Assembly: GCA_041659265.1 (NCBI GenBank)
Contig: JBAZYP010000003.1
Span: forward strand, 101,221 to 165,220
DNA: 64,000 nt
Direction: 5' to 3'
DNA from: Candidatus Pacearchaeota archaeon
GTDB taxonomy: Archaea; Nanobdellota; Nanobdellia; Pacearchaeales; GW2011-AR1
Below are positions 3,819 through 52,598 of this stretch, one piece after another. The translations under genes were made by a program, and so were the position numbers. Numbering within the stretch: the stretch's first letter is position 1; each line of letters starts with the position of its first letter. The notes under the pieces are model-generated. The model made no database searches. It had not been told where the DNA came from and worked only from the letters and a program-made list of their open reading frames with translations.

Positions 3819-3904
3819 CAGGCAACCCTTTCGGATTACCTGGGATTATGTTAATATTATTAATAGTTTATAGTATATAAGATTTTCTATGTTATAAATA
3901 AAAT

Positions 3905-3928
3905 GGACTTAAGAGAGGATCGAACTTA
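3905..3928 (-). other. tRNA 3'-end-like fragment (T-loop TTCGATC + CTCTC + TTAAGTCC). No complementary 5' acceptor strand is found upstream, so it is not a complete tRNA.
   Basis: The reverse complement reads ...AAGTTCGATCCTCTCTTAAGTCC, sharing the T-loop and acceptor 3' strand pattern with the adjacent tRNA-Val. The T-stem 5' strand (ATAAG) cannot pair. Confidence 0.3.
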
Positions 3929-3956
3929 TTCGATCACATTCCTATGAATCCTAGAT

Positions 3957-3977
3957 AGTATTTGCTTTGCAAATACT
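3957..3977. terminator. Perfect 9-bp stem / 3-nt loop hairpin (AGTATTTGC-ttt-GCAAATACT) preceded by oligo-T (minus-strand sense) just 3' of tRNA-Val. Candidate terminator or processing signal.
   Basis: Read directly. On the minus strand the tRNA 3' end is followed by TATATTTT and then the hairpin. Confidence 0.35.
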
Positions 3978-3985
3978 AAAATATA

Positions 3986-4056
3986 TGGACCTAGAGAGGA
4001 TCGAACTCCCGAATTATCGGTGTAAACGATATGGTTTGCCACTAGCCTATAGGTCC
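3986..4056 (-). tRNA. tRNA-Val (anticodon UAC), 71 nt without encoded CCA
   Basis: The reverse complement GGACCTA-TA-GGCT..AACC-TATCG-TTTACAC-CGATA-ATTC-GGGAG-TTCGATC-CTCTC-TAGGTCC-A folds as a cloverleaf. The 7-bp acceptor is perfect and the canonical T-loop is TTCGATC. The anticodon loop TT-TAC-AC gives anticodon TAC. Confidence 0.8.
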
Positions 4057-5666: not shown

Positions 5667-6616
5667 GATATTATTCTATATCTCCCATAATTTAGATAAA
5701 TTTGCACTAAAATAATAATAAAAGCGAGTAAGAAAATATAATCCTTAATACTTGTAGGTTCTTTTTCTCTTTTAATATTTTCACTAATTCTTTTATAAAT
5801 CTCTTCTAAAGTATTATCATCAACACTCTTATAATATTCTCCACCTGTATTTTTAGCAATTTTTTGCAAGGTTGCTTCATCAAGTTCAGCATATTGGGCA
5901 TTTCCAAACCAATCATATCCTAGAACAACTTTTCCATTTGAACCCATTCCTATTGTATTAACTTGAATATTATTCAGTTTTGCATAGGCTATAGCTTCAT
6001 CAGGAGAAATAACTCCAGCATTACTAACTCCATCACTCAATAATATAACAACTTTTTTCTTATTTGGAATACTTGAAGCCATATCAATTGCAAGCGCTAA
6101 ACCATCTCCAATTGCAGTCTGCCCTTGTTTAACTTGTATTCCTCTTAATTTTTCAAGAACTCTATCTTTAAATGGAGATAAATATGCAGAGGTTGTAGCT
6201 CCAGATTCAAATAAAACTATTCCAATCTGATCATTAGCTTTAAGACTTTTTATCAAAACTTCTGCAGATTTTTTAGATGCTTCAACTCTTGTTGGAGTAT
6301 AATCAGTTGCTTGCATACTTCCTGAAACATCTAATGCTAAAACAACATTTACCCCCTCTTTAGTTTGCTTTAAAGGGATATTAGGATCAGCAAAACCAAT
6401 TATCATTAAAGATAGAACTATCATGAATAAGTAAAAATTAAGATGTTCCCTTAAATTAAATCTTTTTTTTGTAGCTTGTTTAATTAAACCGATATTACTA
6501 AATCTAATTGCAGCATCTTTTTTATTTTTATTTGATTTAATATAAAAATAATATAATACAGGTATTATTAATAAAAGATAAAGGTAATATGGTTTAAGAA
6601 ATGTAATATAACTCAT
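5663..6616 (-). CDS. von Willebrand factor A domain membrane protein (BatA-like)
   Basis: MIDAS motif VVLALDVSGSMQATDY plus downstream LSDGVSN. Two N-terminal TM helices and a C-terminal TM. Overlapping stop/start with its neighbours. Confidence 0.8.
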   Translation of the reverse strand: MSYITFLKPYYLYLLLIIPVLYYFYIKSNKNKKDAAIRFSNIGLIKQATKKRFNLREHLNFYLFMIVLSLMIIGFADPNIPLKQTKEGVNVVLALDVSGSMQATDYTPTRVEASKKSAEVLIKSLKANDQIGIVLFESGATTSAYLSPFKDRVLEKLRGIQVKQGQTAIGDGLALAIDMASSIPNKKKVVILLSDGVSNAGVISPDEAIAYAKLNNIQVNTIGMGSNGKVVLGYDWFGNAQYAELDEATLQKIAKNTGGEYYKSVDDNTLEEIYKRISENIKREKEPTSIKDYIFLLAFIIILVQIYLNYGRYRIIS

Positions 6617-22519: not shown

Positions 22520-22753
22520 ATGGAAACAAAAATAATTAGGGTTACTGATAAAGGTCAAATATCTATTCCAGTTGAGATAAGAAATGCTATGGGAATCTTA
22601 GCTGGTGATGAACTTATTGCTGTTAGGGAAGGAGAATCAATATTTTTAAGAAAAATTAAAAAAGACGATTTTAAAGATCTACTAAAACATTCAGAAGCGG
22701 TTGCAAATAAACTTTGGAATAATAAAGAAGATGATATCTGGGATAAAGTTTAA
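22520..22753 (+). CDS. mazE: AbrB/MazE/SpoVT-family antitoxin
   Basis: IIRVTDKGQISIPVEIRNAMGILAGDELIAVREGESIFL is the swapped-hairpin signature. Confidence 0.65.
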   Translation: METKIIRVTDKGQISIPVEIRNAMGILAGDELIAVREGESIFLRKIKKDDFKDLLKHSEAVANKLWNNKEDDIWDKV

Positions 22754-23078
22754 TCAAGGAGATATTTTATTAGTACCCTTTCCATTTTCTAATTTAAAAG
22801 GTATAAAAAAAAGACCTGTATTAGTTATATCTAAAATAAATTATCAAAAACAATGTGATGATATTGTTACTTGTGGCATTACTGCTAATCTTAAAGATTC
22901 AAGATATTCAATATTAATTGATAATTCTAATTTAATTGAAGGAAACATTCCTGTGAAAAGTAGAATTAAAGTGGATAAGATATTTACCTTAGATAAGAAT
23001 ATTGTTATTAAAAAGATTGGAAGAATTAATGAAGTTACTTTTAATCTGGTTAAAACTGAATTTTTTAATCTTATATAA
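22731..23078 (+). CDS. mazF: MazF/PemK-family toxin (endoribonuclease)
   Basis: GDILLVPFPFSNLKGIKKRPVLVIS. The start is probably the ATG at 22731, which overlaps the antitoxin end; the ORF-track start at 22701 is a TTG. Confidence 0.7.
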   Translation: MISGIKFNQGDILLVPFPFSNLKGIKKRPVLVISKINYQKQCDDIVTCGITANLKDSRYSILIDNSNLIEGNIPVKSRIKVDKIFTLDKNIVIKKIGRINEVTFNLVKTEFFNLI

Positions 23079-23211: not shown

Positions 23212-25017
23212 ATGGAAAAGAAATCTCATGATAAAAAACCCGAAGAAACTTTAGATTCTAAAAATTATCAAAATTCTGAGATTAAAGGTCAACCTACTAA
23301 TCAACTTACTCCAGAACAAACAAAAGAAATGGAAAAAGTTAGGGAAAAGTTAGATGAATTGAAAAAATTGATTATTGATAAATACGGAAAATCTGTTGAA
23401 GCAATAGGTATTATTCCTCCTCAAGCTGCTGATGCATTTGATGATGAAAACGAACTTAATGAAGAAGAGCGAAAGAAAAAACCTATGCACTTAGTTGTTG
23501 TTATGGACGATGATAAAGAAAAAGAATATAATGAGATTAGGTCTCATATTGTTAAACAAATAGCAGAATCAAAACAAAATATCTGGTTAAATTTATTATT
23601 GACAAAGGACTTATGGGATTTATGCCAAGATTCAAAATATGCAATTATTGAAGCAATTGGAATGTCTTATCCCTTGCATGATAAAGGAAAATTAGCAGCC
23701 TTAAGAGTTGCTCAGATCCATAAATCTCTTGTATTAAAAAAATTCGAGAAATATGTTTATTCTTATGTTATTGGCGGAAGTCTTGTTAGAGGAGATGCAA
23801 TAAAAACTAGCGATGTAGATACTTATGTTATAATTGATGATACAGATGTAAAAAGAATGCCAAGATTAGAATTAAAGGAAAAATTAAGAAATATTATCTA
23901 TTCATATATAATGCAGGCAGGTGAACTTGCTGGAGTAAAAAATACTCTTAATGTTCAGGTTTATTTACTTACAGAATTCTGGGAAGGGGTTAAAGATGCT
24001 AATCCTATTTTCTATACTTTCTTAAGAGATGGAGTCCCATTATATGATAGAGGCGGATTCTTGCCATGGAAATTATTATTAAAAATGGGTAAGATTAAAC
24101 CATCTCCAGAATCTATTGATATGTTTATGTCAATGGGAGATAAGACTTCTGAAATTGTAAAAAGAAGATTACTTGATATTGTTATTGGTGATATTTATTG
24201 GGGAGTTATTACTCCAAGTCAGGCTATTCTTATGTTATATGGTCTTCCACCAACAACCGTTAAAGAAACAGTTCCAGAAATGAAAAGAATTTTTGTTGAT
24301 AAGGAAAAACTTTTAGAACAAAAATATGTTGATATTTTAGAAGAAATTTTAATAAAATATTACAAAGGATATGAACACCAGAAAATTAAAGAAGTTTCAG
24401 GTAAAGATGTTGATAGACTTCTTAAGAATGCTGAAGATTATTTGAAAAGATTAAAAGAATTAAGGGAAGATTTAGAAAAACAAATGCAGAAGAAAACTTT
24501 TGAAGAAATATACACAAATGTATTTAAGATAATGGGTTCTATTTACGGTGAAAAATCTGAAAGCGAATTAATAAAAACATTTGAAAAAGAAATGGTTAAT
24601 ACCGGAAAAATCCATCCAAAATTCTTGCATACAGTTAATGAACTTCTTTCAATAAAAAAAGATTACAAAAACAAAAAACTTCCAACTAAATATGCTTTTG
24701 AAACATTAAGAAAAGATTCAGTTTATCTAATTGAAAGTTTGGTTGAATATTCTCAAAGAAAAGAATTAGGTCTTTTGGAAAAAACAAAAATAACTTTGAC
24801 ATTTAAAGATAAACATGCTGAATTATTCTTAACTAAACCCTCATTCTTAGTTCATGATAATAAAGTTAAGAAGATAACTGATAAAATTGAAAATTCTGAC
24901 ATGAATGAATTCAATAAAGTTTTAACTGAACATAAAGGTTCCAAAACCAAATTAGATAATCACATGATGAATCTTCTTAGAGCAGAGTTAGGCGAATTCG
25001 ATATTGTAATGGGTTAA
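23212..25017 (+). CDS. 601-aa nucleotidyltransferase-superfamily protein (Pol-beta-like NTase domain plus long helical C-terminal region)
   Basis: YVIGGSLVRGDAIKTSDVDTYVIID matches the GS...S.DxD NTase motif. The remainder is unassigned. Confidence 0.5.
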   Translation: MEKKSHDKKPEETLDSKNYQNSEIKGQPTNQLTPEQTKEMEKVREKLDELKKLIIDKYGKSVEAIGIIPPQAADAFDDENELNEEERKKKPMHLVVVMDDDKEKEYNEIRSHIVKQIAESKQNIWLNLLLTKDLWDLCQDSKYAIIEAIGMSYPLHDKGKLAALRVAQIHKSLVLKKFEKYVYSYVIGGSLVRGDAIKTSDVDTYVIIDDTDVKRMPRLELKEKLRNIIYSYIMQAGELAGVKNTLNVQVYLLTEFWEGVKDANPIFYTFLRDGVPLYDRGGFLPWKLLLKMGKIKPSPESIDMFMSMGDKTSEIVKRRLLDIVIGDIYWGVITPSQAILMLYGLPPTTVKETVPEMKRIFVDKEKLLEQKYVDILEEILIKYYKGYEHQKIKEVSGKDVDRLLKNAEDYLKRLKELREDLEKQMQKKTFEEIYTNVFKIMGSIYGEKSESELIKTFEKEMVNTGKIHPKFLHTVNELLSIKKDYKNKKLPTKYAFETLRKDSVYLIESLVEYSQRKELGLLEKTKITLTFKDKHAELFLTKPSFLVHDNKVKKITDKIENSDMNEFNKVLTEHKGSKTKLDNHMMNLLRAELGEFDIVMG

Positions 25018-25214
25018 TTAAACTAGTCGATTTTATCGACTAAGATTTCATTTGATGAATCTTCTTAAGATGTAGAGTTAGGCGAATTCTAAATTTTAAT
25101 TAAGTTAAACCTAGTAGATTTTATCGACTAAGATTTCATTTGATGAATCTTCTTAAGAGAGAGTTAGGCGAATTCGATATTGTAATTAAGTTAATTAAAC
25201 TAGTCGAATTTTTC
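24964..25214. repeat. Three tandem copies of about 87 bp, the first of which contains the last 18 codons and the stop of the 601-aa gene. Each copy carries the hairpin TAGTCGAT-ttt-ATCGACTA (degenerate in copies 2 and 3).
   Basis: Read directly: GATGAATCTTCTTA(A)GAGNAGAGTTAGGCGAATTC ... TTAATTAAACTAGTCGATTTTATCGACTAAGATTTCATTT repeated at about 24964, 25050 and 25138. Confidence 0.7.
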
Positions 25215-25278
25215 TTTTAAAATATTCATTATTCTCATCAATCTAAATATTTATAATATATTTAATATCAGCTTTTTC

Positions 25279-28547: not shown

Positions 28548-29123
28548 ATGGCTATTGAAACATTAACAATAATTATTCTTGCAATTGCTGCTTTGTTAGG
28601 TGTATTAGTAATCATGTTCATATTCTATTATAATCGATTTACAGTTCTTGAGAATAGAATCGATAACAGTTTAGCGCAGATTGATGTACAATTAAAGAAA
28701 AGAGCAGATTTGATTCCAGCTTTGATTAAGACTGTATCAGGTTATGCAAAGCATGAGAAAAAAATAATGGAAGCAGTTACTCATGCTAGAGCATCAATGT
28801 TAAAGGGCGGAAATCTTGATAAGAGATTAAAAGCAGGCGATGAATTACAATCAGCATTAGGAAGATTATTTGCTATAGCTGAGAACTATCCTAATTTAAA
28901 AGCTAATGAAAATTTCTTGCATATGCAAACAGAATTATCTGCTATTGAAGATAAAGTAGCTTATTCAAGACAATTCTATAATGACTCAGTAATGTCATAT
29001 GAAAACGCAACTGAATTATTCCCTGGTGTATTCTTCTTTAAAATGATGGGCAAATCAAAGAAAGAATACTTGAAGATTTCAGAAGCAGATAAGAATATGC
29101 CTAAGATAGAGTTCGAAGAATAA
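28548..29123 (+). CDS. lemA: LemA-family membrane protein
   Basis: N-terminal TM, then NRFTVLENRIDNSLAQIDVQLKKRADLIPALI ... YPNLKANENFLHMQTEL ... YNDSV, which is typical of LemA. Confidence 0.75.
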   Translation: MAIETLTIIILAIAALLGVLVIMFIFYYNRFTVLENRIDNSLAQIDVQLKKRADLIPALIKTVSGYAKHEKKIMEAVTHARASMLKGGNLDKRLKAGDELQSALGRLFAIAENYPNLKANENFLHMQTELSAIEDKVAYSRQFYNDSVMSYENATELFPGVFFFKMMGKSKKEYLKISEADKNMPKIEFEE

Positions 29124-29266
29124 ATAGTTAGATTTATTTTTATTTTTTTTAGTCCTCAAATTCCCTAAGAATTTGAATGTCCAATATGCCTAAGATAGAG
29201 TTCGAAGAATAAATAGTTAGATTTATTTTTATTTTTTTTAACCCTCAAATTCCCTAAGAATTTGAT
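29097..29266. repeat. Two tandem copies of about 89 bp spanning the lemA stop codon (last 9 codons + stop + 3' flank duplicated)
   Basis: ATGCCTAAGATAGAGTTCGAAGAATAAATAGTTAGATTTATTTTTATTTTTTTTA(G/A)(T/C)CCTCAAATTCCCTAAGAATTTGA occurs at 29097 and again at 29186. Confidence 0.75.
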
Positions 29267-33530: not shown

Positions 33531-36500
33531 TTATTCAGTAAAAATTCTTGTCTTGATAAATTGCCGCATTGCATCAGGATTTCTATATTCTGTGAATGCA
33601 GCAGGAGTGAAGGTATCTTCTACAAATGTTTCAGGGTTTCTTATGACTAAAGAAACTGTACCATCAGATTCTAATCTATAAAGTTCATGATAAATTGGTC
33701 CAGATGGGGTATTTTGTATAGTATAAAACGCAGGATTTCGTTCACTAATTGGTTTTGCAAGTTCTGCAATTACTCTGTCAGTTACATCAAATGCACCAGC
33801 ATTATCAATATTAGTATACTTCTTTACTAATGCCGGATCAAGCATACCAATATATGCTCTCTGGTGCTCAGGTAATGTAACTGAAATCATTTTGGAATAT
33901 TCCTTGCCTGAAACAGGATTTAAAACTGATTCAGACAATATTTCATCAAACATTCCATACATTTCATTTCTTCTTATAATTAAACTTGCATCTTTTGATG
34001 TACCCCATCTTCCAATTTCTCTAAGGTTACCAAAAAAGTCTCCTGTTGGAGAATCAAAAGTGCTCATTGAACCTGCAACTTTTCCATCAATCTGGATATT
34101 ATAAGTTTCAGCACGGCCAACTTTATTCAAAATCTTTTGTTTTGTATAAACTGCATAGGGTCTTAGTTTTTCATTTGCAGCATTAGCATAATCAATAAAA
34201 ACAACTTCTGCATTCTCAACAAGATCTGCTGAAGCAACAACTCGTGATTGTGATATTGGATGTATTGCAGATTGAGAAAATCTTGCAGCAGGTTCTGAGT
34301 TATAATATTTCATCAAGGCACGTCTTGCATCCGGATGTTCTCTTATGAATGCATTTGTCATTTCTTCAGGATTAAATATATCTACAATATCTGCACTATC
34401 AATATCAGATAAAATTTTTGATAATTCCTCACCTTGATAATTATTTAAGACATAATCTTTAAAATCCTCGGTAAGTGCGCTAACATCTGTCAACTTTTTT
34501 GAACCAAACTGCATTCTTCTAGCTCTATCAGTTAAAGTCTTAAGTTCTTTGAAATATACCTTTTCTAATTCACGTTCAACTCCAGTGTCATCAATTAGGT
34601 TACGTAGAGCTGTTGTTCCATCAGGATTCTTTACTCTTACTTTAATATCAGGAAAAGTTATTGTTCCACCATTTGCAGCTGGTTCGAATTTAAGATTAGA
34701 GAAATCAGCATGATTCCTTAAAATATTCTCAGCTCTTGTTGGATATTTTCTTTTTAATCCAGAATTAATCTTTACAATATCTGCTTCTTCAATAATTATT
34801 GTTCCTGATTTTCTTACTTGGAGTGATGGATTATTAAAAAAACCAGTACCTGTTGGTGTTTCTAATAAGTTCTTTAATTGATTTGTTGCTGCAAACGGAT
34901 CTTCCATGTTCCTTATAACTTTCATAGCATCATATTGTTTATAGAAAATATCTGCCTCAGCCTTTGTAAGCTTGGATAGACTTCTGTACATTTTTTCAGC
35001 ATGAGTCCTTTCAACAAGATCAATTATTTCCTCTGCAACATCAACAGCTGAACTTTCAATTTCTGCAGCTGTAGCTGTAGATTTGCCTCTAAAAATCCTC
35101 CATCTTGATGTTCCGTCAGGAGCAGGAGTTGTTTTTAAAACAAGAATAACTTCATCTGCAACCTTGCTTTCTAATACTCCAACCCTGGTAAGGATATTTG
35201 TTCCTACTCTTTTTATAATCCTCAATGTAAAAGGAAGAGCTTTAGAAAGTACAGCTCCTGTAGCAATATTAAAAAGACCTTCTCCAACATCTGTAAGGAC
35301 AGCATCAGTCATACTATCATATTCTTCAGGGTTTAATTTGTATCTTATTGCATTTACTCCACCTGTAAAATAAAATGGCAGTTCCAACATTGTTTGCATC
35401 AATGCAGCATTTCCATTATAACCATTTGCCATTTCAATATAATCAGAACCAACAGTTTCATCAGATACTGAAACAATTTGACTGTCATGAACATACCAAC
35501 CAACTATCACGAGATGATATGCACCATGACCACCTTCATAGACTTTATCTTTTTTTGCTTTAAAAGAAGTCTTAACCTTAAGATTCTCATGGATATAAAC
35601 ATCTTCTGGTGTTGTTCTTTTTCCTGCTGCAACCTGAAGGTCTTTAAAAAAACTAAAGCACATAGAGAAAATAGTCTTAGGGTCAGCTACCCCATAATCA
35701 TTTACAATAGGATAACTTATCTGTACTTTTCTTACAATTTTTAATTTCTCTAATGCTTTCATCTCTGCATCTGAGATAAGATTGTAGTTCCTGATATATT
35801 CAAATTTCTGTTCCTTGGTAATATCAGTTCTTAATGCAGTTTTCGATGAAAGATCAATCGCTTTCATTAATTTTGCCCATGCATCTTTTGGATGAATATT
35901 ATAATCCACAAATCTTCCTTGCATATTTTGTGCATTTACTTTTATTATAGGTAACCTAGAAAAATAATAATCTGCAATTTCTTGATATGTTGCACCATCA
36001 GGACCATAATTAAAACTTCTCGGTTTATCATCAAACTCTTTATAGACCGAGTAATAGTTTATCGGGCAAACCTCCGGATCAGTTATAACTTTTCCTGTAA
36101 ATCCAACATCGTATAAATAACCAGTGCCACATGAAAATTCCAGACTAGGATTTAGTTTAAGATCTGTTATGCATAAAGCTTTTTCACTATTGCAAGTCGG
36201 ACATTTGAGTGTTAACATTTTTTTTGAAAAATAACCATTAAATATCTCACGAAAGTAACCATTAGGATTATTTGATAGGGATTTTGTTGTAATAGTATTA
36301 TCAGAATTAGTTAATAATAGAGAACAAGAGCCAGCTGACTTTGTTGCTCCACGCAAGACAAAAATATTATATTCATTATAAGGTAGGAAGAAGACATCTT
36401 TTTCACTTGTAGTGGGACTAACTAAAAACTCAATATTTGTCCATGTTAGTTCAGGTGTAATATTGCATGTACCAGTTTGGCAAGAATTTATACGAGGACT

Positions 36501-39500
36501 TTTAAGGAGCTTTATTTCTGTTGACTTGCTTGTAAAAGTTGTGCATAATTGGTTTGTTTTTAGATAATCATTGATAAGAGTAAAGATTTCAGCTCCAGCA
36601 GATGTTTGAGTACCGTTAATAGCTGTATATGTTAAGCTGTTGCAATCATTATAAAAATCCAATCTTGGCTGATAACTTGAATTTGTCTCATTAGTAGTAT
36701 ATTTAATTATGACTGAAATAGAACTTGAATACAATGATAAATTATTCAATAAAGGAATTATTCTGTTGCAAAGTGTACAATCACTTGGATTGTCTGTTGT
36801 GAAGATAATATTTCCACAAGACTGTGGAACTGAATAAATATAATTAACATTAAATGTACTTGTTGTTTCTATAGAGGGCATTACTGATGTAAAATTCATG
36901 TACCTAGTTTCATTAGGTTTTAGAGTAACATTATAGTCTCCAATAATGAATGAACCCGTAGGAGGATGGATATGATATGTTAAGTTTATATCAAGATAAT
37001 TGAACAATTCAATTGACCCATTGAATAATTTACCTACTTCAAAATTTCTTGCATAAATCCATTGAACACTAGTCCCATTAGAGCCATTTTTCCACATGTT
37101 TCTGACATAACTTTCTCCTTTGTTGCAATATTGATTGCATCCACATTGAGAGTTCGAAGTGCACGAATCATTGATTATCTTGCATGAGGATCTTGTTGAT
37201 TCACTTCCATTACAACATCCGATTTTTCCAGATATTGAGCAATTATTAAAAATTGGTACTTTTAAACAAGTTCCATTGAAACTTTCTTTTGGTTCAGCTT
37301 TAAAGACAAAATTATATGTATCAGATATATCTGAACTAATACTACATTCAAGAGGATTATTATTTATATAATTATTTACACATGATTCAAATCCAACAGT
37401 ACCAGAGCAGACTTTTCTATTATCTCTATTTAATGCAACCGGATAGTTTGATAAGCCATATCTTGTTTCAAATCTTGTTTTACAATATTTCTGTATATAT
37501 CCATTATAACTAGAGGTTGCAAAGTCAAAAATATTAAAAGATCTAAAAGGTAGGGGATATATGTTCTGCATTATTTTTATGATATGATTAATTGTTTTTT
37601 GTCTTGTTAAACAAACACTTTCAGCTTTTGAATCATATAATATTTTTATGCAATTCATTCCACCAGGTACTGAGAGATCTAATTTATTTATACCTTTTTG
37701 AGGTATTGATTTTTTAATCTCAAAAACAAAACTATAATCTAAAAAATTAGTAGCATAATTAAAATTAATTATTTTATTCTGTTTAGCTAAAATTGTTCCT
37801 TTAATGGGTTCATTAATAAAATTTGAAGCTTCTACTCCAATTAAAATCTGACTAGTATCATAATAAACACTTTTTAAGATTACTTCATACTTTATTGGCA
37901 CATCAAAAGGATTTGATATGACTATAGGTTCTGTAATAAGTTTTCCAGGTTTAATGTTCAAATATACAAAATCATTACCTTTTTTTATGATTTTTTCACT
38001 ATTATAATACTTGCAATATTCACAACTTGAACAGGCTTGATTATTTTGAGAACAAGTTTTTCCAATGACTTTTGTACAAATTCCAGATGAACATTTTCCA
38101 GATTTTATTACTCCTTTTCCATTATAAGGATCTTTTTCATAAAATGTACATGACTTTCCATTTTTAGTCGAGTCAGCAATACAACCTGCATTTGGATTAT
38201 TAATATCGCATGTTTCACATTCAGAACAAACTTTAGAAATTCTATCAGCTCTTAAATATGCCCAATCAAAAATACCTGAATATGAATCTCTTAGGACAAG
38301 ATCAGGAAGAAAGGAGTATTCAACAATTATATCTCTGTTGGAAATAACTCCAAGACTATCCTGTTTATAACATTTTTTTGGGGGATTAGCGGGTGGAGAA
38401 CATTTATTTCCTGATTGAGAACAAACATAGGATGTTGTATATTGATCTGTTCTAGAATGTACAGTAACTTTATACCATCCAGAAGTATTGAAAATTTTGC
38501 ATGTATTGCTTGCAGTGCAAGGTATTTCAGTTCTTTCATAATTATATATTGGAGGGTAAGAGATATCACATCTATAGGTTTTTGTTTCAGTCTGAGTACA
38601 TTTTTTTGGTACAGGGCAGATTGGATTAGGAGTATTACAAGTACTAATATTAGAACAATAAGCCATACCCCAACATTGATGAATGCACGCCCCATTAGAG
38701 CATTGCTGACAATTATTTTTTTGTTTACATTGATCTATTATAGAACTAGTTAATGATGTTTGATTATAATAACATGATTCGCAAAGGTTTGGATTAGGAC
38801 TTTCACTTAAAGATTGACCATTAAAACAAAATGAACAGCTGCCATTAATAGCAGGCATAGTTGATGAACAATTTCCATTAGAACATGTTTGACAAGCTGT
38901 ATAATTGCATTTTGATTTGCATGCACCACCATTGCATGTCTGACATCCAGTGCAGGTTGAAGTGCAATTCTTTTTTGAAGAATCATATTGTAAACAATTA
39001 CTTTCACTGCAAGTAGAACACTGAGTGCCATTCCAAGGAAGTCCTTTCTTGCAATCAAATGAACAATTTCCAGGATCATCAACAATAGCAAAACCAGTTA
39101 TTGCATCAGCGGTTATAGTTGGTTTTTCTTTTCCAAGAAATAATCCTTTAATGAATTTATTAAAGCCTACTAACCTTTCTCCAAAAGATTTTTCATTAGG
39201 TTCTTTTTGTGTTATTATTACTTCTGGTTTAATTTCTTCATTTTCTTCTACGGGTTTTAATGAACTTAATGTACCTAAATTATCTATTTCATATTCACAT
39301 TGACATTCATCTTTTATTGAACTTACAAGAGTCCAGGTTCCACATCTTCCTCCGCATCCATCTTCACTGCATGAATATATATTATTTGAACAATGAGGGA
39401 CACAGGTTCCATCGCATACTCCATTAGTACATGTTTGACCTACTTGACAAGTTCCACATGTTCCAGAACATCCATCTGATCCACAAGTCTTTCCAGCACA

Positions 39501-40937
39501 ATTTGGAATGCAACTTCCAACACATTGTCCATTAGTGCATGTTTGACCTACTTGACAAGTTCCACATGTTCCTCCACATCCATTATCTCCACAAGTCTTT
39601 CCAGCACAATTTGGAATGCAACTTCCAACACATTGTCCATTAGTACATGTTTGACCTACTTGACAAGTTCCACATGTTCCTCCGCATTCATTATCTCCGC
39701 AAGTCTTTCCAAAACAATTAGGTAAACATGATGGCCCACAAACTCCATTATTGCAAAAATTACCAATCATACAAGTCCCACAGCTTCCTGAACATCCATC
39801 AGATCCACAATTTTTTCCAGCACAATTAGGTAGACAACTTTGATAACATAAACCTGATTTACATTCATAATTAGTTGGACATGTTCCGCATGTTCCTCCA
39901 CATCCATTATCTCCACAATATTTTCCAGAACAACTAGGAATACATGATGGATTAGAACATTGATAATTAGAATTACAAACTAATGGAGAAGTGCATGTTC
40001 CACAAAATCCAGAACAACCATCTGGACCACATTGTTTATTGGTGCACGATGGAGTGCAGGTAGTTATACAGTTGCCATTTGAACAGGTTTGACCAATTGG
40101 ACATATTCCACAAGTTAGATAAGATCCACATCCATCAGACCATGAGCCACAAGATTTTCCAAGTATAGGACATGTTGTTGGAGTGCATGGATTAATTGGA
40201 GGAAGAATTGGATTAGTGATTGGTGTTGTAGGGTTTGTTGGATATGAAGGAGGAGTTAATATTGGAAGAGTAAAAATATAATTATAATCAGAAGTTATAT
40301 CACTTGCAGATATTGCAGAATTATATACTCTAACTTCATCTATAGCACCTTTAAATGGATACCATAAACTACTTCTTCCATCACCAAAAGAAAATTTATA
40401 TGTTGAATAATAAGTTACAGTTCCAGGAGCATTTAATGTATTATCTAAAACTCCATCAATATAAATCTTCATAGATGTTCCATCATAAGTAAAGACTAGA
40501 TTATACCAAGTGTTATCAAGAAGTTTTTTTATTGAATAGACTGATTTTTGGGTTCCAGCAATATTCATTGAAAATATTATCCTTCCATCAGACATGAAAC
40601 CAAAATAAGGTAAATGCTGACCCATAAACATATTATATGTATTCAGTGAAGAATATCTTTTAACCCATAAAGAATAAGTCATCTGATTACCTTTTCCTGT
40701 AAGTAAATCTTTTGTTTCTAATCTGGATAAACCATCAAATGACAAGGCTTTTCCATTCTTGCCTTCAATAAAAGTTGTTGTACCAACAACTGTAGCAGGA
40801 TTTGTTGGATTATAAAAATCAATTATGCTATCATCAAATTTATAATGAATTATAGGACTAACAGCGCTAATATTTAAAATATTAGCTAATATTATCCCTA
40901 ATAAGATTACGAATATCCACACTCTTTTACTTGTCAT
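33531..40937 (-). CDS. Giant 2468-aa secreted/surface protein: signal peptide, LamG/concanavalin-A-like jelly-roll domain, Pro/Thr linker, about 8 tandem 36-aa Cys-rich repeats, a long Cys- and N-x-S/T-rich region, and a roughly 1100-aa Cys-poor C-terminal region
   Basis: N-terminal MTSKRVWIFVILLGIILANILNISA. LamG-like WYNLVFTYDGTSMKIYIDGVL. Repeats CxPNCAGKTCGxDGCxGTCGTCQVGQTCTNGQCVGS. Single uninterrupted ORF. Confidence 0.8.
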   Translation of the reverse strand: MTSKRVWIFVILLGIILANILNISAVSPIIHYKFDDSIIDFYNPTNPATVVGTTTFIEGKNGKALSFDGLSRLETKDLLTGKGNQMTYSLWVKRYSSLNTYNMFMGQHLPYFGFMSDGRIIFSMNIAGTQKSVYSIKKLLDNTWYNLVFTYDGTSMKIYIDGVLDNTLNAPGTVTYYSTYKFSFGDGRSSLWYPFKGAIDEVRVYNSAISASDITSDYNYIFTLPILTPPSYPTNPTTPITNPILPPINPCTPTTCPILGKSCGSWSDGCGSYLTCGICPIGQTCSNGNCITTCTPSCTNKQCGPDGCSGFCGTCTSPLVCNSNYQCSNPSCIPSCSGKYCGDNGCGGTCGTCPTNYECKSGLCYQSCLPNCAGKNCGSDGCSGSCGTCMIGNFCNNGVCGPSCLPNCFGKTCGDNECGGTCGTCQVGQTCTNGQCVGSCIPNCAGKTCGDNGCGGTCGTCQVGQTCTNGQCVGSCIPNCAGKTCGSDGCSGTCGTCQVGQTCTNGVCDGTCVPHCSNNIYSCSEDGCGGRCGTWTLVSSIKDECQCEYEIDNLGTLSSLKPVEENEEIKPEVIITQKEPNEKSFGERLVGFNKFIKGLFLGKEKPTITADAITGFAIVDDPGNCSFDCKKGLPWNGTQCSTCSESNCLQYDSSKKNCTSTCTGCQTCNGGACKSKCNYTACQTCSNGNCSSTMPAINGSCSFCFNGQSLSESPNPNLCESCYYNQTSLTSSIIDQCKQKNNCQQCSNGACIHQCWGMAYCSNISTCNTPNPICPVPKKCTQTETKTYRCDISYPPIYNYERTEIPCTASNTCKIFNTSGWYKVTVHSRTDQYTTSYVCSQSGNKCSPPANPPKKCYKQDSLGVISNRDIIVEYSFLPDLVLRDSYSGIFDWAYLRADRISKVCSECETCDINNPNAGCIADSTKNGKSCTFYEKDPYNGKGVIKSGKCSSGICTKVIGKTCSQNNQACSSCEYCKYYNSEKIIKKGNDFVYLNIKPGKLITEPIVISNPFDVPIKYEVILKSVYYDTSQILIGVEASNFINEPIKGTILAKQNKIINFNYATNFLDYSFVFEIKKSIPQKGINKLDLSVPGGMNCIKILYDSKAESVCLTRQKTINHIIKIMQNIYPLPFRSFNIFDFATSSYNGYIQKYCKTRFETRYGLSNYPVALNRDNRKVCSGTVGFESCVNNYINNNPLECSISSDISDTYNFVFKAEPKESFNGTCLKVPIFNNCSISGKIGCCNGSESTRSSCKIINDSCTSNSQCGCNQYCNKGESYVRNMWKNGSNGTSVQWIYARNFEVGKLFNGSIELFNYLDINLTYHIHPPTGSFIIGDYNVTLKPNETRYMNFTSVMPSIETTSTFNVNYIYSVPQSCGNIIFTTDNPSDCTLCNRIIPLLNNLSLYSSSISVIIKYTTNETNSSYQPRLDFYNDCNSLTYTAINGTQTSAGAEIFTLINDYLKTNQLCTTFTSKSTEIKLLKSPRINSCQTGTCNITPELTWTNIEFLVSPTTSEKDVFFLPYNEYNIFVLRGATKSAGSCSLLLTNSDNTITTKSLSNNPNGYFREIFNGYFSKKMLTLKCPTCNSEKALCITDLKLNPSLEFSCGTGYLYDVGFTGKVITDPEVCPINYYSVYKEFDDKPRSFNYGPDGATYQEIADYYFSRLPIIKVNAQNMQGRFVDYNIHPKDAWAKLMKAIDLSSKTALRTDITKEQKFEYIRNYNLISDAEMKALEKLKIVRKVQISYPIVNDYGVADPKTIFSMCFSFFKDLQVAAGKRTTPEDVYIHENLKVKTSFKAKKDKVYEGGHGAYHLVIVGWYVHDSQIVSVSDETVGSDYIEMANGYNGNAALMQTMLELPFYFTGGVNAIRYKLNPEEYDSMTDAVLTDVGEGLFNIATGAVLSKALPFTLRIIKRVGTNILTRVGVLESKVADEVILVLKTTPAPDGTSRWRIFRGKSTATAAEIESSAVDVAEEIIDLVERTHAEKMYRSLSKLTKAEADIFYKQYDAMKVIRNMEDPFAATNQLKNLLETPTGTGFFNNPSLQVRKSGTIIIEEADIVKINSGLKRKYPTRAENILRNHADFSNLKFEPAANGGTITFPDIKVRVKNPDGTTALRNLIDDTGVERELEKVYFKELKTLTDRARRMQFGSKKLTDVSALTEDFKDYVLNNYQGEELSKILSDIDSADIVDIFNPEEMTNAFIREHPDARRALMKYYNSEPAARFSQSAIHPISQSRVVASADLVENAEVVFIDYANAANEKLRPYAVYTKQKILNKVGRAETYNIQIDGKVAGSMSTFDSPTGDFFGNLREIGRWGTSKDASLIIRRNEMYGMFDEILSESVLNPVSGKEYSKMISVTLPEHQRAYIGMLDPALVKKYTNIDNAGAFDVTDRVIAELAKPISERNPAFYTIQNTPSGPIYHELYRLESDGTVSLVIRNPETFVEDTFTPAAFTEYRNPDAMRQFIKTRIFTE
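39422..39745. repeat. Three near-identical 108-bp tandem DNA repeats inside the giant gene, each encoding one 36-aa Cys-rich module
   Basis: Read directly: CATTAGT(R)CATGTTTGACCTACTTGACAAGTTCCACATGTTCC ... CACAAGTCTTTCCAGCACAATTTGGAATGCAACTTCCAACACATTGTC repeated at 39422, 39530 and 39638. Confidence 0.8.
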
Positions 40938-44739: not shown

Positions 44740-45021
44740 TTAATTATATTTTTTATTGATCTGCTCTATTCTCTTTTTAATTATATAATAAGTTATTAAG
44801 AATATTATAAGAAAAATTGAAAAAACAAAAATCATTGATAGGGATTGATTATCAAACATATTTTTTAAATAGGGATTTGTTTCAGCAAAATCTACTAATA
44901 TTACTCCAACAAAACCAACAGGAATGCACGAACCAACAAAAACTAATGGTCCTACAATAAATATTGTCAATAAAATTAATATCATTCTTGTTACAGGCCT
45001 CTTAATTTTTTCTTCATCCAT
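44740..45021 (-). CDS. Small two-TM protein, paralog 1 of a six-member tandem family (lipobox-like VGSC motif, C-terminal KKYN)
   Basis: MDEEKIKRPVTRMILILLTIFIVGPLVFVGSCIPVG ... KKYN. Confidence 0.5.
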   Translation of the reverse strand: MDEEKIKRPVTRMILILLTIFIVGPLVFVGSCIPVGFVGVILVDFAETNPYLKNMFDNQSLSMIFVFSIFLIIFLITYYIIKKRIEQINKKYN

Positions 45022-45490
45022 ATTTTTCTTTGATAAATTTAATTGTTTTTATTACAACAAAAAATGCTAAAATAGTCCCTATTACTAATCCTGCTAGAAG
45101 ATATACCTCTGCTTTTGTGCTATAAATGTTCTGAGTAGTTACACCATAAAATCCAATAGGAAAACATGATCCAACAAAAACTAATGGTCCCAATATAAAA
45201 ATAGTTATTAAAATTCTTATTTTAATTTCAATTCCACTTTTTGTTTCTCTATTTTTGCTATTAGCATAAATATTATCAAAATGGAAATATAATCCACTTA
45301 ATACAAGAATAATCGATATAATAAAAATTAGAATCTGAATTAATTTTAAAATAAAATAAAAATCACGGAATTGACTAGTTCTAATAAACTCAATAATTAA
45401 AAATAAAATTAAATTTATAAATAAAATTAAAAAAAAATAATTTAATAATTTGCCTTTTTGTCCTTGATTATTAATATTTTTTTCATCCAT
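45014..45490 (-). CDS. Paralog 2, with an extra N-terminal TM region and an internal GPLVFVGSCFP motif
   Basis: ILGPLVFVGSCFPIGFYG ... IKEKYG. Confidence 0.45.
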   Translation of the reverse strand: MDEKNINNQGQKGKLLNYFFLILFINLILFLIIEFIRTSQFRDFYFILKLIQILIFIISIILVLSGLYFHFDNIYANSKNRETKSGIEIKIRILITIFILGPLVFVGSCFPIGFYGVTTQNIYSTKAEVYLLAGLVIGTILAFFVVIKTIKFIKEKYG

Positions 45491-45923
45491 TTTTTAAATC
45501 TTTAATAAATTTATATATAAAAAATAATGCTAGAAAACAAAATAGGAAAAATGACAGATATCCAGTTATCTCTTCTCTTGATTCTTTTGGAAATATTGAA
45601 GAATAGGTAAAAAAAGGAATTAATACTAATAACATATATCCTATAAAAAAATAAATAATATAATTATTAAAGAACTTTTTAATTATATATTTGGATTTTG
45701 TTGGATCCTGTTTATAGAATTTTAATATTTTTAAAATCAAAAATGCAGATATTAAGCCACAAAATAATGAAAGAAAAGGTAAAATTAAATCATAATTATT
45801 AAAATACGTGCTAGAGATTCCTAGGGGTAAGCAAGAACCTAAAAATATTAAAGGACCAATTAAAAATAAAATTAAGATAACAAATAAAACTTTTGATATT
45901 TTAGATTTTTTTCCTTCATCCAT
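45483..45923 (-). CDS. Paralog 3, with a C-terminal extension
   Basis: MDEGKKSKISKVLFVILILFLIGPLIFLGSCLPLG. Confidence 0.45.
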   Translation of the reverse strand: MDEGKKSKISKVLFVILILFLIGPLIFLGSCLPLGISSTYFNNYDLILPFLSLFCGLISAFLILKILKFYKQDPTKSKYIIKKFFNNYIIYFFIGYMLLVLIPFFTYSSIFPKESREEITGYLSFFLFCFLALFFIYKFIKDLKNG

Positions 45924-46164
45924 ATTTTTTATTAATTAACTTAATCAAATAAAAAACAACTAATATTCCTAAACCTAATCCAACTATCCATGACCCATAA
46001 AAGATTATCATTCCAAAGAATTCAGAACTTCCGCCTTCAGATAAAGTAAAACCAAATAAACCTAAAGGAAAACATGCCCCAACAAAAACTAATGGTCCTA
46101 CAATAAATATTGTCATTAATATTAAAATTATCTTCAATCCCGAACTTTTTTTATTCTTAACCAT
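45916..46164 (-). CDS. Paralog 4
   Basis: MVKNKKSSGLKIILILMTIFIVGPLVFVGACFPLG ... INKKYG. Confidence 0.5.
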   Translation of the reverse strand: MVKNKKSSGLKIILILMTIFIVGPLVFVGACFPLGLFGFTLSEGGSSEFFGMIIFYGSWIVGLGLGILVVFYLIKLINKKYG

Positions 46165-46624
46165 ATTTTCTAATAATTTTATTTATTATAATATAAGCTA
46201 TAGATAATATAACTATAACTCCAAAAGATCCGATAATTAGGGTTGGTGAGGAAATAATCCTAAAAATATCTTGAAAAGATATAACTTCTCTAAGTAAATA
46301 AAAAAAGATTATTAATAAAACCAATAATAATAAACCAAAAATTATTTTTATATGAAGATCAATTTTACCAACTTCATAATATTTTTTTATAGCTTTAATT
46401 GTTTTTATTACAACGTATATAGCTAAACCTAATCCAATTATCCATGATGCAAAAAATAATCCAATCCATAAATTTGCTATAGTTCCTCCTCTTTCATAAG
46501 AATTCATAAAACCAAGCATACCTACAGGAAAACATGCTCCAAAAAAAACAAGTGGCCCTACAATAAAAATTGCAAGGAATATGAGAACAATTCTACTGGT
46601 TGGAATTTTTTCACTTTTACCCAT
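46157..46624 (-). CDS. Paralog 5, with a C-terminal extension
   Basis: MGKSEKIPTSRIVLIFLAIFIVGPLVFFGACFPVG ... IIRKYG. Confidence 0.5.
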   Translation of the reverse strand: MGKSEKIPTSRIVLIFLAIFIVGPLVFFGACFPVGMLGFMNSYERGGTIANLWIGLFFASWIIGLGLAIYVVIKTIKAIKKYYEVGKIDLHIKIIFGLLLLVLLIIFFYLLREVISFQDIFRIISSPTLIIGSFGVIVILSIAYIIINKIIRKYG

Positions 46625-49150: not shown

Positions 49151-50131
49151 ATGTCAGATCACAAAGTTAGTATATTAGCAAATCCTGAAGGAAATGCATG
49201 GGAATATGCAGAAGAGATTTTTAATTACTTAAATAAAAAAGATGATTGCTATGAATTAAATAGGGTGATAATTGAGTCTTTTAGAAATGGAGAAATTAAG
49301 CCCAAGATTGAAGATAATATTAGGGATAGAAAATGTTTCTTTATTCACGATTCAACACTTGATCCTAACAAATGGTTAGCTCAATTATCTCTAATTAACG
49401 AGACAATGCATAATTCTTCATCTTATAATATCACAGATATATTACCTATGTATTTATTTGCAAGACAAGATAGGAAAGATGATTCAAGGGTTCCAAAAAG
49501 TGCAAAAGTTGTTGCAGATATTGCACAAAAATATGGAAATAGATTAATGACATTAGATATTCACTGTCCACAGATAGAACTGGCATTTGATACACCTTTT
49601 GAAAACTTGCCTTCTTATCCAGTGGTATCTTCTTATTTAAAAAAGAATCACCCAAAAATACTCGATGATCTTGTAATTATGAGTCCAGATGAAGGCGGTG
49701 TGAAAAGAGCAGTTGCATTTGGAAAATATTTGCAAAATAATGAACTTGTTGTTGCATATAAAATTAAAGATAAAAATGGAAAAATTATAGATTTAAGGAT
49801 TTTAGGGGATGTTAAAGATAGAAAAGTAATGATGATTGATGATATCGTAGATTCAGGTAATACTTTAATTACAGCTGCAAGAAGAGCAAGAGATCTAGGA
49901 GCAAGTGAAGTTTATGCCTATGCAACTCACGGGTTATTTACTGAAGGTTCAGATAAAGTTACAAGAGAATTTGATAAATTTTTTGTAGGAGACACATTTA
50001 AACAAAAACAAGGAATTAACGCAGAAATTATCAAATTACCCTTATTCATTGGTGAGGCTATATACAGAAATATTACTGGTTTAAGTTTAAGCGAGATGTT
50101 CAGATACGATTTTGTTTTTGATGCAGTTTAA
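49151..50131 (+). CDS. prs: Ribose-phosphate pyrophosphokinase (PRPP synthetase)
   Basis: PRPP-binding loop KVMMIDDIVDSGNTLITAA. Overall Prs length and layout. Confidence 0.8.
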   Translation: MSDHKVSILANPEGNAWEYAEEIFNYLNKKDDCYELNRVIIESFRNGEIKPKIEDNIRDRKCFFIHDSTLDPNKWLAQLSLINETMHNSSSYNITDILPMYLFARQDRKDDSRVPKSAKVVADIAQKYGNRLMTLDIHCPQIELAFDTPFENLPSYPVVSSYLKKNHPKILDDLVIMSPDEGGVKRAVAFGKYLQNNELVVAYKIKDKNGKIIDLRILGDVKDRKVMMIDDIVDSGNTLITAARRARDLGASEVYAYATHGLFTEGSDKVTREFDKFFVGDTFKQKQGINAEIIKLPLFIGEAIYRNITGLSLSEMFRYDFVFDAV

Positions 50132-50217
50132 TCAATGCAGAATTGATAGATTCTGCAGGTCTGTTACTGGTTTAAGTTTAAGCGAGATGTTCAGATACGA
50201 TTTTGTTTTTGATGCAG
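50074..50217. repeat. Two identical 53-bp copies (last 19 codons of prs) separated by a 38-bp spacer containing an 8-bp inverted repeat; period 91 bp
   Basis: TACTGGTTTAAGTTTAAGCGAGATGTTCAGATACGATTTTGTTTTTGATGCAG at 50074 and 50165. The spacer holds TGCAGAAT-tgatag-ATTCTGCA. Confidence 0.75.
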
Positions 50218-50259
50218 ATTAAGAATAAATCAAAAAGGACATTATTTCAAAAATCAATT

Positions 50260-50592
50260 CTATCCTTTGATAATATTACAAATTTTATCTTCTACTTCTT
50301 TAATTTTATTTTTATTAATTTTTCCAGCCTTGTATAGGATTATTGATTCTCTAAGTGTAAATAAGATTGAAGGTTTTATATGACTATTAATTTTTAATCC
50401 GCCATTTGAAAAGTCATTATCTGTTAAATCTATCTGATAAGGATCAGGATGATATTTTGAAGTAATTTGACAAAGAATAATATCTTCTCCTTTTAAATTT
50501 GCAACAACAAGAGCAGGTCTTTTTATTGAAGATTTTAAGTCTGAAAAAGGGAATGGTGTTACAACGACATCACCTTTTACAAATTTTTCCAT
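50260..50592 (-). CDS. mazF: MazF/PemK-family toxin, second copy
   Basis: GDVVVTPFPFSDLKSSIKRPALVVA. Confidence 0.7.
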   Translation of the reverse strand: MEKFVKGDVVVTPFPFSDLKSSIKRPALVVANLKGEDIILCQITSKYHPDPYQIDLTDNDFSNGGLKINSHIKPSILFTLRESIILYKAGKINKNKIKEVEDKICNIIKG

Positions 50593-50786
50593 GCGATTTC
50601 ATCCTCTTTACTTAACCAATTTTTGGAAAGAAGATCTTCATCAGCATAAATATTGGATTTTATGCTTTCAAGTTCTTCAATTCTTTTTTGCACACATCTT
50701 CGGACAAACTCACTCCATTTAATTTCAGAATATTTTCGCATTTTTTTATAAACTTCATCATCAATTGATAATGTAATATTAGTCAT
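50577..50786 (-). CDS. Antitoxin, ribbon-helix-helix-like
   Basis: MTNITLSIDDEVYKKMRKY. Overlaps the toxin start by 16 nt. Confidence 0.45.
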   Translation of the reverse strand: MTNITLSIDDEVYKKMRKYSEIKWSEFVRRCVQKRIEELESIKSNIYADEDLLSKNWLSKEDEIAWKNL

Positions 50787-50793
50787 TCTTTAT

Positions 50794-50809
50794 TAAGTGA
50801 GCTCACTTA
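50794..50809. promoter_or_regulatory. Perfect 16-bp palindrome TAAGTGAGCTCACTTA 8 nt upstream of the antitoxin start. Candidate operator.
   Basis: Read directly. Confidence 0.45.
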
Positions 50810-50921
50810 TTTAAATCTTACGAATAAAAATATTAAGTTAATTTAAAAGATCAATATTTTTTTTATCATTATAAATAATATTATCCCAAACCTTTTTTAA
50901 TACTGCAAAATATATATTATA

Positions 50922-52062: not shown

Positions 52063-52446
52063 ATGTTACAAAAAAACTACACTGCTTCTGAAACGCATTA
52101 TTTATGCGATGAATGTAGTGAGGCAATTACTAATCCATTATGTCCTTATTGTCTTACTGAAGAAGTTGAAGCTTGGTTAACTCTTTATCCTAATCTAAAG
52201 CATGAGATAAAGCCGCATATAGATAGGTATCTTCACCGTGGATTCATGAATTTCTCGACAATATGTATCAAATGTAGAAATCCTTCTGCATTCCTGTGTC
52301 CATATTGTTTCACAAATCATGTATTAATATCATTAAAGAAAATTAATGCAAGTAAGTTAATATTAAAAGAATTCTTTGATTTCTTTAATTTTGATTTTGA
52401 TCATACCGGTTATACTCATGAAGCAGAGAGGTTAGGAGTAATTTGA
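52063..52446 (+). CDS. Cys-rich zinc-finger protein, 127 aa
   Basis: CDECSE ... CPYCLTEE ... CIKCRN ... CPYCFTNH. Confidence 0.4.
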   Translation: MLQKNYTASETHYLCDECSEAITNPLCPYCLTEEVEAWLTLYPNLKHEIKPHIDRYLHRGFMNFSTICIKCRNPSAFLCPYCFTNHVLISLKKINASKLILKEFFDFFNFDFDHTGYTHEAERLGVI

Positions 52447-52598
52447 TGACAATCAGTTTAAAGTTAAATCCACTAACTCAAATATCTTCGATATTTGATC
52501 TAGTTAAGAGGTTAGGAGTAATATGATAATGTTAAATAAAATTTCAAATTCATCTTCTCAAAAATCAAAAAGATTTTTGATATGTAAGGAGGGAAATC

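Follow-up and report, generated by a model that had tools for sequence, protein, structure and literature searches.

Several routes to local duplication of DNA have been described: the duplications of yeast rad27/FEN1 mutants, template switching at hairpins and quasi-palindromes, and events of the fork stalling and template switching or microhomology-mediated break-induced replication type (FoSTeS/MMBIR). Here we compare these systems with five small duplications that we find in one stretch of 64,000 nucleotides ("the window"; contig JBAZYP010000003.1, positions 101,221 to 165,220) from the metagenome-assembled genome (MAG) of an uncultivated archaeon of the DPANN group, Candidatus Pacearchaeota. 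Each of them comprises two to three copies of a unit that spans the 3' end of a gene, with periods of 80, ~82, 88, 89 and 91 bp. Like the products of flap misprocessing and template switching, these copies lie head to tail, are tens of base pairs long, involve hairpin-forming DNA and occasionally have filler bases at the junction; as in flap misprocessing, their upper size is close to the length of a short Okazaki fragment of the eukaryotic or archaeal type. On the other hand, the period here is fixed at 80-91 bp and the junction lies 5-8 nt from the foot of the hairpin, the clean sites are without microhomology, all of the sites are at gene 3' ends, and, unlike in the rad27/FEN1 mutators, the five events per 64 kb occur in a wild genome.

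For the AT-rich genome of Plasmodium falciparum, hairpins near breakpoints have been proposed to trigger copy-number change; the events concerned are kilobase-scale amplifications between A/T tracks, as opposed to the ~90-bp gene-end units seen here (PMC6393310). In the literature we found no precedent for tandem duplications that straddle stop codons or that occur in DPANN archaea. In summary, the pattern is real, reproducible and statistically non-random: it belongs to a known general kind of event, the local tandem duplication, in a stereotyped form that has not been reported before.

We examined the window, extended by 140 nt at its right edge, together with a further 6.8 kb of the same genome (contig L094). 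The comparison set consisted of the window and 80 related loci, that is, 1.1 Mb with 1101 open reading frames (ORFs), and Pfam families were searched in 40 ORFs of the window. The window has a GC content of ~27% and a GC skew that tracks the strand of the genes; its proteins match those of uncultivated DPANN archaea annotated as Candidatus Pacearchaeota, Nanoarchaeota or Woesearchaeota. At sites 1 to 4 the first copy covers the stop codon of an ORF on the forward strand. These ORFs encode a 601-aa nucleotidyltransferase-like protein (NTase; 23212-25017, weak matches to NTP_transf_2 and DUF2680), LemA (28548-29123), the ribose-phosphate pyrophosphokinase Prs (49151-50131) and a 127-aa protein without annotation (52063-52446). 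Site 5, at a tRNA-Val gene, was newly found by a hairpin-anchored scan of the window and the related loci (perfect stems of at least 8 bp, with the left 80 nt aligned against the right 120 nt), which also recovered sites 1 to 4.

The original prediction had named three of these duplications, with a weak fourth, and had held that they are unlikely to be a coincidence and suggest a systematic mechanism. The statistics of position, period and lineage support this view. All five units span a gene end only. Of 88-bp units positioned at random, those inside genes excluded, 24% would do so (p = 8e-4), while 28% would span a gene start only, 27% would lie purely between genes and 20% would span both. 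The five periods fall within 11 nt of each other, for which we calculated p~1e-4 under a uniform distribution between 40 and 200, and p~3e-4 under the empirical distribution of close-repeat periods in the relatives. Furthermore, when all 1101 ORFs were ranked by how well their last 60 nt are found again within 300 nt downstream, the prs, NTase and lemA genes of the window took ranks 1 to 3 and the gene of the 127-aa protein rank 5 (Fisher p = 6e-5). Finally, 5 of the 36 hairpins of the window are affected by a duplication, as compared to 6 of 459 in the relatives (p = 5e-4).

At all five sites, the duplicated unit carries the final 20-60 nt of a gene, with its stop codon or the tRNA 3' end, and one perfect hairpin with a stem of 8-10 bp. 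Such hairpins belong to the gene ends themselves, since perfect stems of at least 8 bp are found within 70 nt after the stop codon in 10 of 66 genes, compared to 3.4% of control windows in coding sequence. They are concentrated at genes that are followed by a real intergenic spacer, and are thus native 3'-end elements, presumably terminators or RNA-stabilising structures. A scan for consensus terminators, whose coverage does not extend to archaeal termination signals, flagged the hairpin of site 1 alone. The hairpin sequences (TAGTCGAT, TCAAATTC, TGCAGAAT, TCAAATATC and TAGTATTTGC at sites 1 to 5, respectively) differ at every site, so the duplications are not members of a dispersed repeat family; a repeat search of the window likewise returned no family shared between sites. 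By eye, no convincing conserved motif was seen at the unit starts or in the fillers.

From the start of copy 1 to the hairpin there are 64, 62, 63 and 51 nt at sites 1, 2, 3 and 4, the hairpins are 19, 21, 22 and 21 nt long, and from the hairpin foot to the next copy there are 5, 6, 6 and 8 nt. Sites 1 to 3, which are the youngest events, have a near-identical geometry, and we see the same at the prs gene of a much closer organism (JGI contig L085, discussed below), with 62-64 nt before the hairpin and a restart 5-6 nt after it. The probability that the junctions fall into such a narrow slot by chance is ~1e-4 to 4e-6. Distant Pacearchaeota show the same architecture: in L061 (8545-8734) a 90-nt copy reaches up to the hairpin foot and is followed by a 10-nt filler (period 100), and L050 (4179-4310) is similar, with a period of 71.

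Site 1 is a tandem array at 24965-25194 with a period of 88, 2.6 copies and 87% matches according to Tandem Repeats Finder (TRF). In unit 1 (24960..25047, forward strand; delimited by the repeat search and Pfam), the final 18 codons of the NTase/DUF2680 gene with their stop codon are followed by the perfect hairpin TAGTCGAT-ttt-ATCGACTA at 25024-25042 and a 5-nt tail. In unit 2 (25048..25135, forward) there are indels, the reading frame soon meets a stop, and the hairpin stem contains one mismatch (TAGTAGAT...ATCGACTA), while unit 3 (25136..25223, forward; 88% in the repeat search) resembles unit 1 in its middle part and unit 2 at its 5' end; the 3' arm of its hairpin has decayed. The differences shared between the three units thus form a mosaic. 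The earlier description of three copies of ~87 bp over the stop codon, with the last 18 codons in the first and the third decaying, is essentially right (with a period of 88), except that a hairpin had been seen in each copy: it is perfect in the first, mismatched in the second and reduced to its 5' arm in the third.

At site 2, TRF confirms the reported lemA duplication with two copies and a period of 89 (29094-29265, 1.9 copies, 97% matches). Copy 1 (29094..29176, forward) takes in the final 9 codons of lemA together with their stop codon, continues through a T-rich tract and has, at its right edge, the hairpin TCAAATTC-cctaa-GAATTTGA (29156-29176). Direct reading of the sequence gives a filler of 6 nt, ATGTCC, between the copies (29177..29182, forward), which is unlike either flank (GATAAG upstream and TTTTAT downstream). 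Copy 2 (29183..29265, forward) is identical to copy 1 at 81 of 83 positions and has its hairpin at 29245-29265. For sites 1 and 2, no closer relatives were found: NTase and LemA have their nearest homologues at 79-80% identity, each with a single copy (for the 601-aa NTase, the best relatives outside its own genome are at most 80% identical), and a metagenome scan for closer relatives returned only a fragment of the same strain.

Site 3 had been described as a duplication at prs with a period of 91, and this period holds. It is not a contiguous tandem repeat, though, but consists of two copies of 59 nt around a unique hairpin spacer (50073-50131 and 50164-50222, 98% identity, spacing 91). Copy 1 (50073..50131, forward) is the last 59 nt of prs including its TAA stop. 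It is followed by the 32-nt spacer (50132..50163, forward), which holds the hairpin TGCAGAAT-tgatag-ATTCTGCA at 50136-50157 and a 6-nt tail, GGTCTG. Copy 2 (50164..50222, forward) is identical to copy 1 at 58 of 59 positions and terminates precisely at its own TAA, with no hairpin behind it.

For this site we can compare the window with a close relative; note that this comparison is limited to one relative and to prs. Contig L085 encodes a Prs with 97% amino acid and 87% nucleotide identity to that of the window. Its prs is duplicated as well, and the borders, the hairpin and the tail agree with those of the window. In an alignment of the four prs copies, five positions are concerted (shared within a genome and different between the genomes) and none is orthologous. 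Taken together with the identical borders, this means that the duplication predates the split of the two lineages and was re-homogenised later. The two copies differ at 1 of 59 positions in the window and at 10 of 59 in L085. Judging from this alignment, the prs duplication is old, and the lineage of the window has re-homogenised it, either through gene conversion or through further rounds of expansion and contraction; the concerted evolution of prs would thus indicate that one of the two, gene conversion over ~60 bp or renewed expansion/contraction, operates in this lineage. We also considered that a frameshift or read-through extends Prs into copy 2. Indeed, an ORF in the +1 frame (50112-50222, forward) leaves the end of prs, crosses the hairpin spacer and enters copy 2 in its original frame (MFLMQFNQCRIDRFCRSVTGLSLSEMFRYDFVFDAD*), and by manual reading its equivalent in L085 (~1660-1764, ..CRIDIFCRFITGLSLSEM..) is open as well. 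As few codons are involved, such a frame would by our estimate be open by chance in ~34% of cases, and at the other sites it is closed. We dropped this candidate; the open frame in both genomes is probably due to chance.

Site 4 had been noted as a weak similarity with a period of 80 and a match of merely 16-25 bp. The period is correct, and the match turns out to be a complete, old duplication of an 80-nt unit (52427-52486 and 52507-52566, 60 nt, 70% identity, spacing 80) with a hairpin in both copies. Unit 1 (52427..52506, forward) contains the last 17 nt and the TGA stop of the gene for the 127-aa protein, followed by the hairpin TCAAATATC-ttc-GATATTTGA at 52478-52498 and a tail of 8 nt. 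Unit 2 (52507..52586, forward) is ~70% identical to unit 1; in its hairpin, TCAAAAATC-aaaaa-GATTTTTGA (52558-52580), perfect pairing is preserved by a compensatory T>A / A>T change.

The tRNA-Val gene of site 5 lies on the reverse strand at 3986-4056 and is the only Rfam match in the scan. Copy 1 is the 3' end of the tRNA (3986..4006, reverse; GTTCGATCCTCTCTAGGTCCA), and copy 2 (3904..3925, reverse; GTTCGATCCTCTCTTAAGTCCA), with one indel and one mismatch, is located ~82 nt downstream of it. The hairpin TAGTATTTGC-aaa-GCAAATACTA (3956..3978, reverse) begins 7 nt 3' of the tRNA. Structured RNA genes as an origin of the repeats were rejected: Rfam gives the tRNA-Val only, and folding whole units yields nothing beyond the hairpin (z from +0.1 to -2.5).

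How could such units arise? The explanation that we prefer, and of which we are about half convinced, is that template switching nucleated by a hairpin during replication, or misprocessing of a flap, followed by selection, has produced heritable duplications of 80-91 bp. The hairpin would fold in single-stranded DNA, either in the template of the lagging strand or in a displaced 5' flap, and the polymerase would stall at a distance of a few nucleotides from the hairpin foot. Either the nascent strand or a flap that resists the flap endonuclease would then be rejoined ~90 nt out of register, and one unit would be duplicated. In a variant of this process at site 3, the second pass may have skipped the extruded hairpin, giving a copy without the 32-nt hairpin segment. 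Selection would keep those duplications that reach from the 3' end of a gene to beyond its terminator, as they leave the gene intact; within a gene, a duplication of this kind would cause a frameshift, as no period that we measured is divisible by 3. Later, the extra copies could decay, as at sites 1, 4 and 5, or, as at site 3, be homogenised anew with the gene copy through gene conversion or further rounds of duplication and deletion.

The original prediction had offered three options, namely slippage at terminator hairpins during replication or repair, the traces of a site-specific element with gene 3' ends as its target, and a strategy of terminator duplication. The first one fits best: there is a hairpin in every duplicated unit, the hairpins are native to gene ends, and the youngest junctions lie 5-6 nt past the hairpin foot. 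The classical form of slipped-strand mispairing does not fit, however. It is true that we find head-to-tail copies of adjacent sequence, as it would require, but not the border microhomology without foreign bases: sites 2 and 3 have sharp borders without junction microhomology, site 2 has the 6-nt filler, site 3 the 32-nt spacer, and a duplication in a related locus (L061) a filler of 10 nt. The sharp borders and the fillers argue against simple microhomology slippage.

Besides this failure of the simplest slippage model, several further points weigh against hairpin-nucleated switching. Copy 2 of site 3 is without a hairpin in both lineages, which demands an extra step such as the bypass of an extruded hairpin. 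The anchoring of the hairpin is not uniform, since at site 5 it sits in the middle of the unit, 7 nt past copy 1 and 30 nt ahead of copy 2. The prs duplication was kept across ~13% nucleotide divergence, which, together with the compensated hairpin of site 4, could speak for selection over neutrality. We found no further events in the additional 6.8 kb of the same genome. The size of the unit, 80-91 bp, is left unexplained by any of the data.

With respect to the size, a bolder and more doubtful version, to which we assign a minor but real chance, is that a hairpin-dependent duplication of fixed length occurs at a high rate in this lineage, and that the 80-91 bp reflect a physical ruler of the cell. 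Archaeal Okazaki fragments are reportedly ~100 nt long (Matsunaga et al. 2003), and three archaeal histone dimers wrap ~90 bp. The ruler could hence be a whole Okazaki fragment that is re-ligated after its hairpin-bearing 5' flap has escaped FEN1, or else a template switch across one superhelical turn of ~90 bp of DNA wrapped around three histone dimers. The closeness of the unit to both lengths leads to these as hypotheses. If the ruler were true, the duplications would be a record, readable from the sequence, of the size of a replication or chromatin unit in an uncultivated DPANN archaeon, and a new recognisable mutational signature, possibly tied to the loss of a gene for flap processing or repair.

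If the pattern extends genome-wide, extrapolation from five events per 64 kb would suggest tens of events per genome of ~1 Mb. This would amount to an undescribed DPANN mutational signature, with one unit of fixed size anchored on 3' hairpins, and would offer an indirect way to study replication mechanics, such as the size of Okazaki fragments and the processing of flaps, or the length of the chromatin unit in uncultivable organisms. It would also explain a source of new 3' untranslated regions (3'-UTRs), terminators and C-terminal sequences in streamlined genomes. For annotators and assemblers it would mean that contig breaks and short pseudo-ORFs at the gene ends of MAGs can be real repeats.

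The alternative that survives best, even if we think it rather improbable, is that the extra copies are functional 3' modules, e.g. tandem terminators, decoys or regulatory 3'-UTRs, which are under selection and whose identity is actively preserved. The terminator-duplication strategy put forward earlier is of this kind. Tandem intrinsic terminators and the bacterial repetitive extragenic palindromes and interspersed mosaic elements (REP/BIME) indeed also present repeated hairpins directly 3' of genes; unlike in REP/BIME, the hairpin sequences here are site-specific and the repeats include coding sequence and the stop codon. The prs structure has been kept in L085 with the same borders, with the hairpin spacer more conserved between the two genomes (26 of 29 positions) than copy 2 (46 of 59), and the near-identity of the two copies in the window despite the age of their duplication would be explained by active preservation. 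The hairpins are perfect in both units at sites 2 and 4, at site 4 owing to the compensatory change. Such compensatory changes, though, can also come from template switching at quasi-palindromes. Nor have the downstream hairpins been maintained throughout, given that they decay in units 2 and 3 of site 1 and that copy 2 of site 3 has none, and the divergence of the two prs copies in L085 speaks against an identity that is actively preserved. The orthologues in other Pacearchaeota suffice as single copies, and direct repeats are unable to base-pair with one another at the RNA level.

A second alternative, which we judge to be unlikely, is that small tandem duplications occur at random without any role of the hairpins and are lethal at other positions, the similar periods being either a coincidence or a survivorship window (long enough to be detected and short enough to escape recombinational deletion). 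As hairpins are common at gene ends, a unit that spans a stop codon will often include one. Moreover, the relatives do have occasional intergenic duplications of 49-100 bp. For example, a second array in L061 (9637-9880, reverse strand, period 95, 2.6 copies, 98%) lies over the 5' end of a tRNA gene, its unit comprising 14 nt of the tRNA and the region upstream of it, and an array in L009 (6252-6448, period 62, 3.2 copies) covers the ribosome-binding region and the first codons (ATGGTAGCAATGAAAACT) of a gene that starts at 6439. The latter can be regarded as a start-spanning counterpart to the stop-spanning events of the window.

Against pure chance stand the statistics given above: the position at gene ends is significant even among the positions that would be tolerated, the periods are clustered, the junction lies 5-8 nt from the hairpin foot at four sites, and the hairpins of the window are affected in a far larger fraction than those of the relatives. 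The orthologues of NTase, LemA and Prs in relatives with at most 80% amino acid identity have a single copy, which suggests that the NTase, lemA and prs duplications originated within this lineage; a more distant prs relative (L098, 56% identity) is also without a duplication, and there a convergent gene abuts the stop codon. Small intergenic tandem duplications are thus a general, low-frequency feature of Pacearchaeota, and this genome is unusual in their density, their uniform size and their location at 3' ends.

The third explanation, footprints of site-specific recombination, supposes that integrative elements inserted at the 3' ends of genes and tRNAs, left repeats similar to attL and attR, and lost their bodies. 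A partial direct repeat of a tRNA 3' end is the classical mark of integrase-mediated insertion, and exactly this is present at tRNA-Val. As with the attL/attR repeats of tyrosine-integrase elements, the 3' end of a protein or tRNA gene is repeated downstream of the intact gene. A further hint is a cassette of ~656 bp next to prs (50223..50878, reverse strand; Pfam and comparison with L085) with a PemK-like toxin (50260-50592, reverse) and its antitoxin (50577-50786, reverse), which is absent from L085 (at 1765-1771); the left edge of this indel coincides exactly with the last base of prs copy 2. For our part the cassette serves as context only. The DNA between the copies is just 0-60 nt long, and five independent, near-total deletions that each leave a period of 80-91 bp are implausible. 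Sites 1 and 4, and nearly so site 2, are tandem repeats of whole units rather than repeats that flank an insert, the period is constant, no sequence is common to the sites, and Pfam shows no integrase, transposase or reverse transcriptase among the scanned ORFs. We therefore reject footprints of mobile elements, the second of the options offered by the original prediction, as very improbable.

It would also be conceivable that the duplications are artefacts of assembly, caused by bubbles from strain mixtures or by k-mer overlaps, and the original prediction had named assembly error as a way in which it could fail. This we take to be highly improbable, because the sites are reproduced in other assemblies. 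A MEGAHIT k141 contig (L083, ENA ERZ27249449) spans the whole array of site 1 and differs from the window at one position outside the repeats. Site 2 is spanned at 100% identity by L087 (JGI 3300014208) and L088 (ENA). Site 4 is complete in L089 (ENA, MEGAHIT) and covered by L090 (Logan, from a different run). For site 3, L089 begins within prs copy 1, at window position 50098, and so spans the terminal 34 nt of this copy together with the spacer and copy 2. Altogether, sites 1, 2 and 4 are spanned whole at 99.97-100% identity by MEGAHIT k141, JGI and Logan contigs. All of these supporting assemblies are from short reads and possibly from related samples. The Logan contigs with k=31 are interrupted exactly at the borders of the repeats (L081 stops at 29123 and L082 begins at 25129), which may look suspicious and is also what is expected of true repeats. 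Copies that are 70-98% identical, contain indels and are not of k-mer length do not look like the product of an assembler, and L085, a different organism, has the prs duplication as well.

Artefacts of this kind probably do exist in the related MAGs. Exact direct repeats of 55-57 nt with a spacing of 134-184 nt occur in SPAdes/NODE contigs (L008 1390-1444, L044 7580-7634, L038 13156-13210, L069 1-57), and since their length equals the k=55 step of SPAdes, they are probably errors. They resemble k-mer artefacts closely enough to count in favour of an assembly origin in general, and call for caution in genome-wide surveys of such duplications. Independently of this, contigs of different assemblies end at the same points, at lemA (28962; L087 and L088), tRNA-Val (4020; L094) and prs (49306; L084), which suggests strain-level variation or further repeats in the source communities.

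We give almost no credence to a template/variable repeat pair (TR and VR) of a diversity-generating retroelement (DGR), or to any other re-copying of mRNA 3' ends by a reverse transcriptase: DGRs are common in DPANN archaea, a downstream copy of a gene 3' end that stays similar over time and has a hairpin nearby superficially recalls their layout of VR, TR and initiation of mutagenic homing (IMH) element, and the single mismatch at site 3 is a T in the gene copy and an A in the downstream copy, but the repeats here are adjacent, the mismatches are not adenine-specific (at these positions L085 has T, C, C, G, A, T, T, A, A, A in its downstream copy, and site 2 has A and C, in non-coding sequence), the genes targeted are of the housekeeping type or encode a tRNA, and no reverse transcriptase of the RVT family is among the scanned ORFs. 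Integration of CRISPR or off-target spacers was rejected as well, as the repeats (~21 to 88 nt) and the spacers (0 to 60 nt) vary in length but add up to a constant sum, and no Cas family was found in the same ORFs.

Finally, a few other features of the window are worth mentioning. Toxin-antitoxin-type genes are located at 22701-23078, 50260-50592 and 633-1316, among them two PemK/MazF-like toxins and a gene that matches AbiEii weakly. Apart from the five sites, repeats of long period occur in the window only within coding sequence: a 2468-aa ORF on the reverse strand (33531-40937) contains in-frame tandem repeats of 108 bp (36 aa) at 39334-40031 with 71-91% identity, which appear to be cysteine-rich. 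Also on the reverse strand, a tandem family of paralogues at 44740-46624 consists of overlapping small genes of 82-158 aa with a mutual nucleotide similarity of 74-84%.

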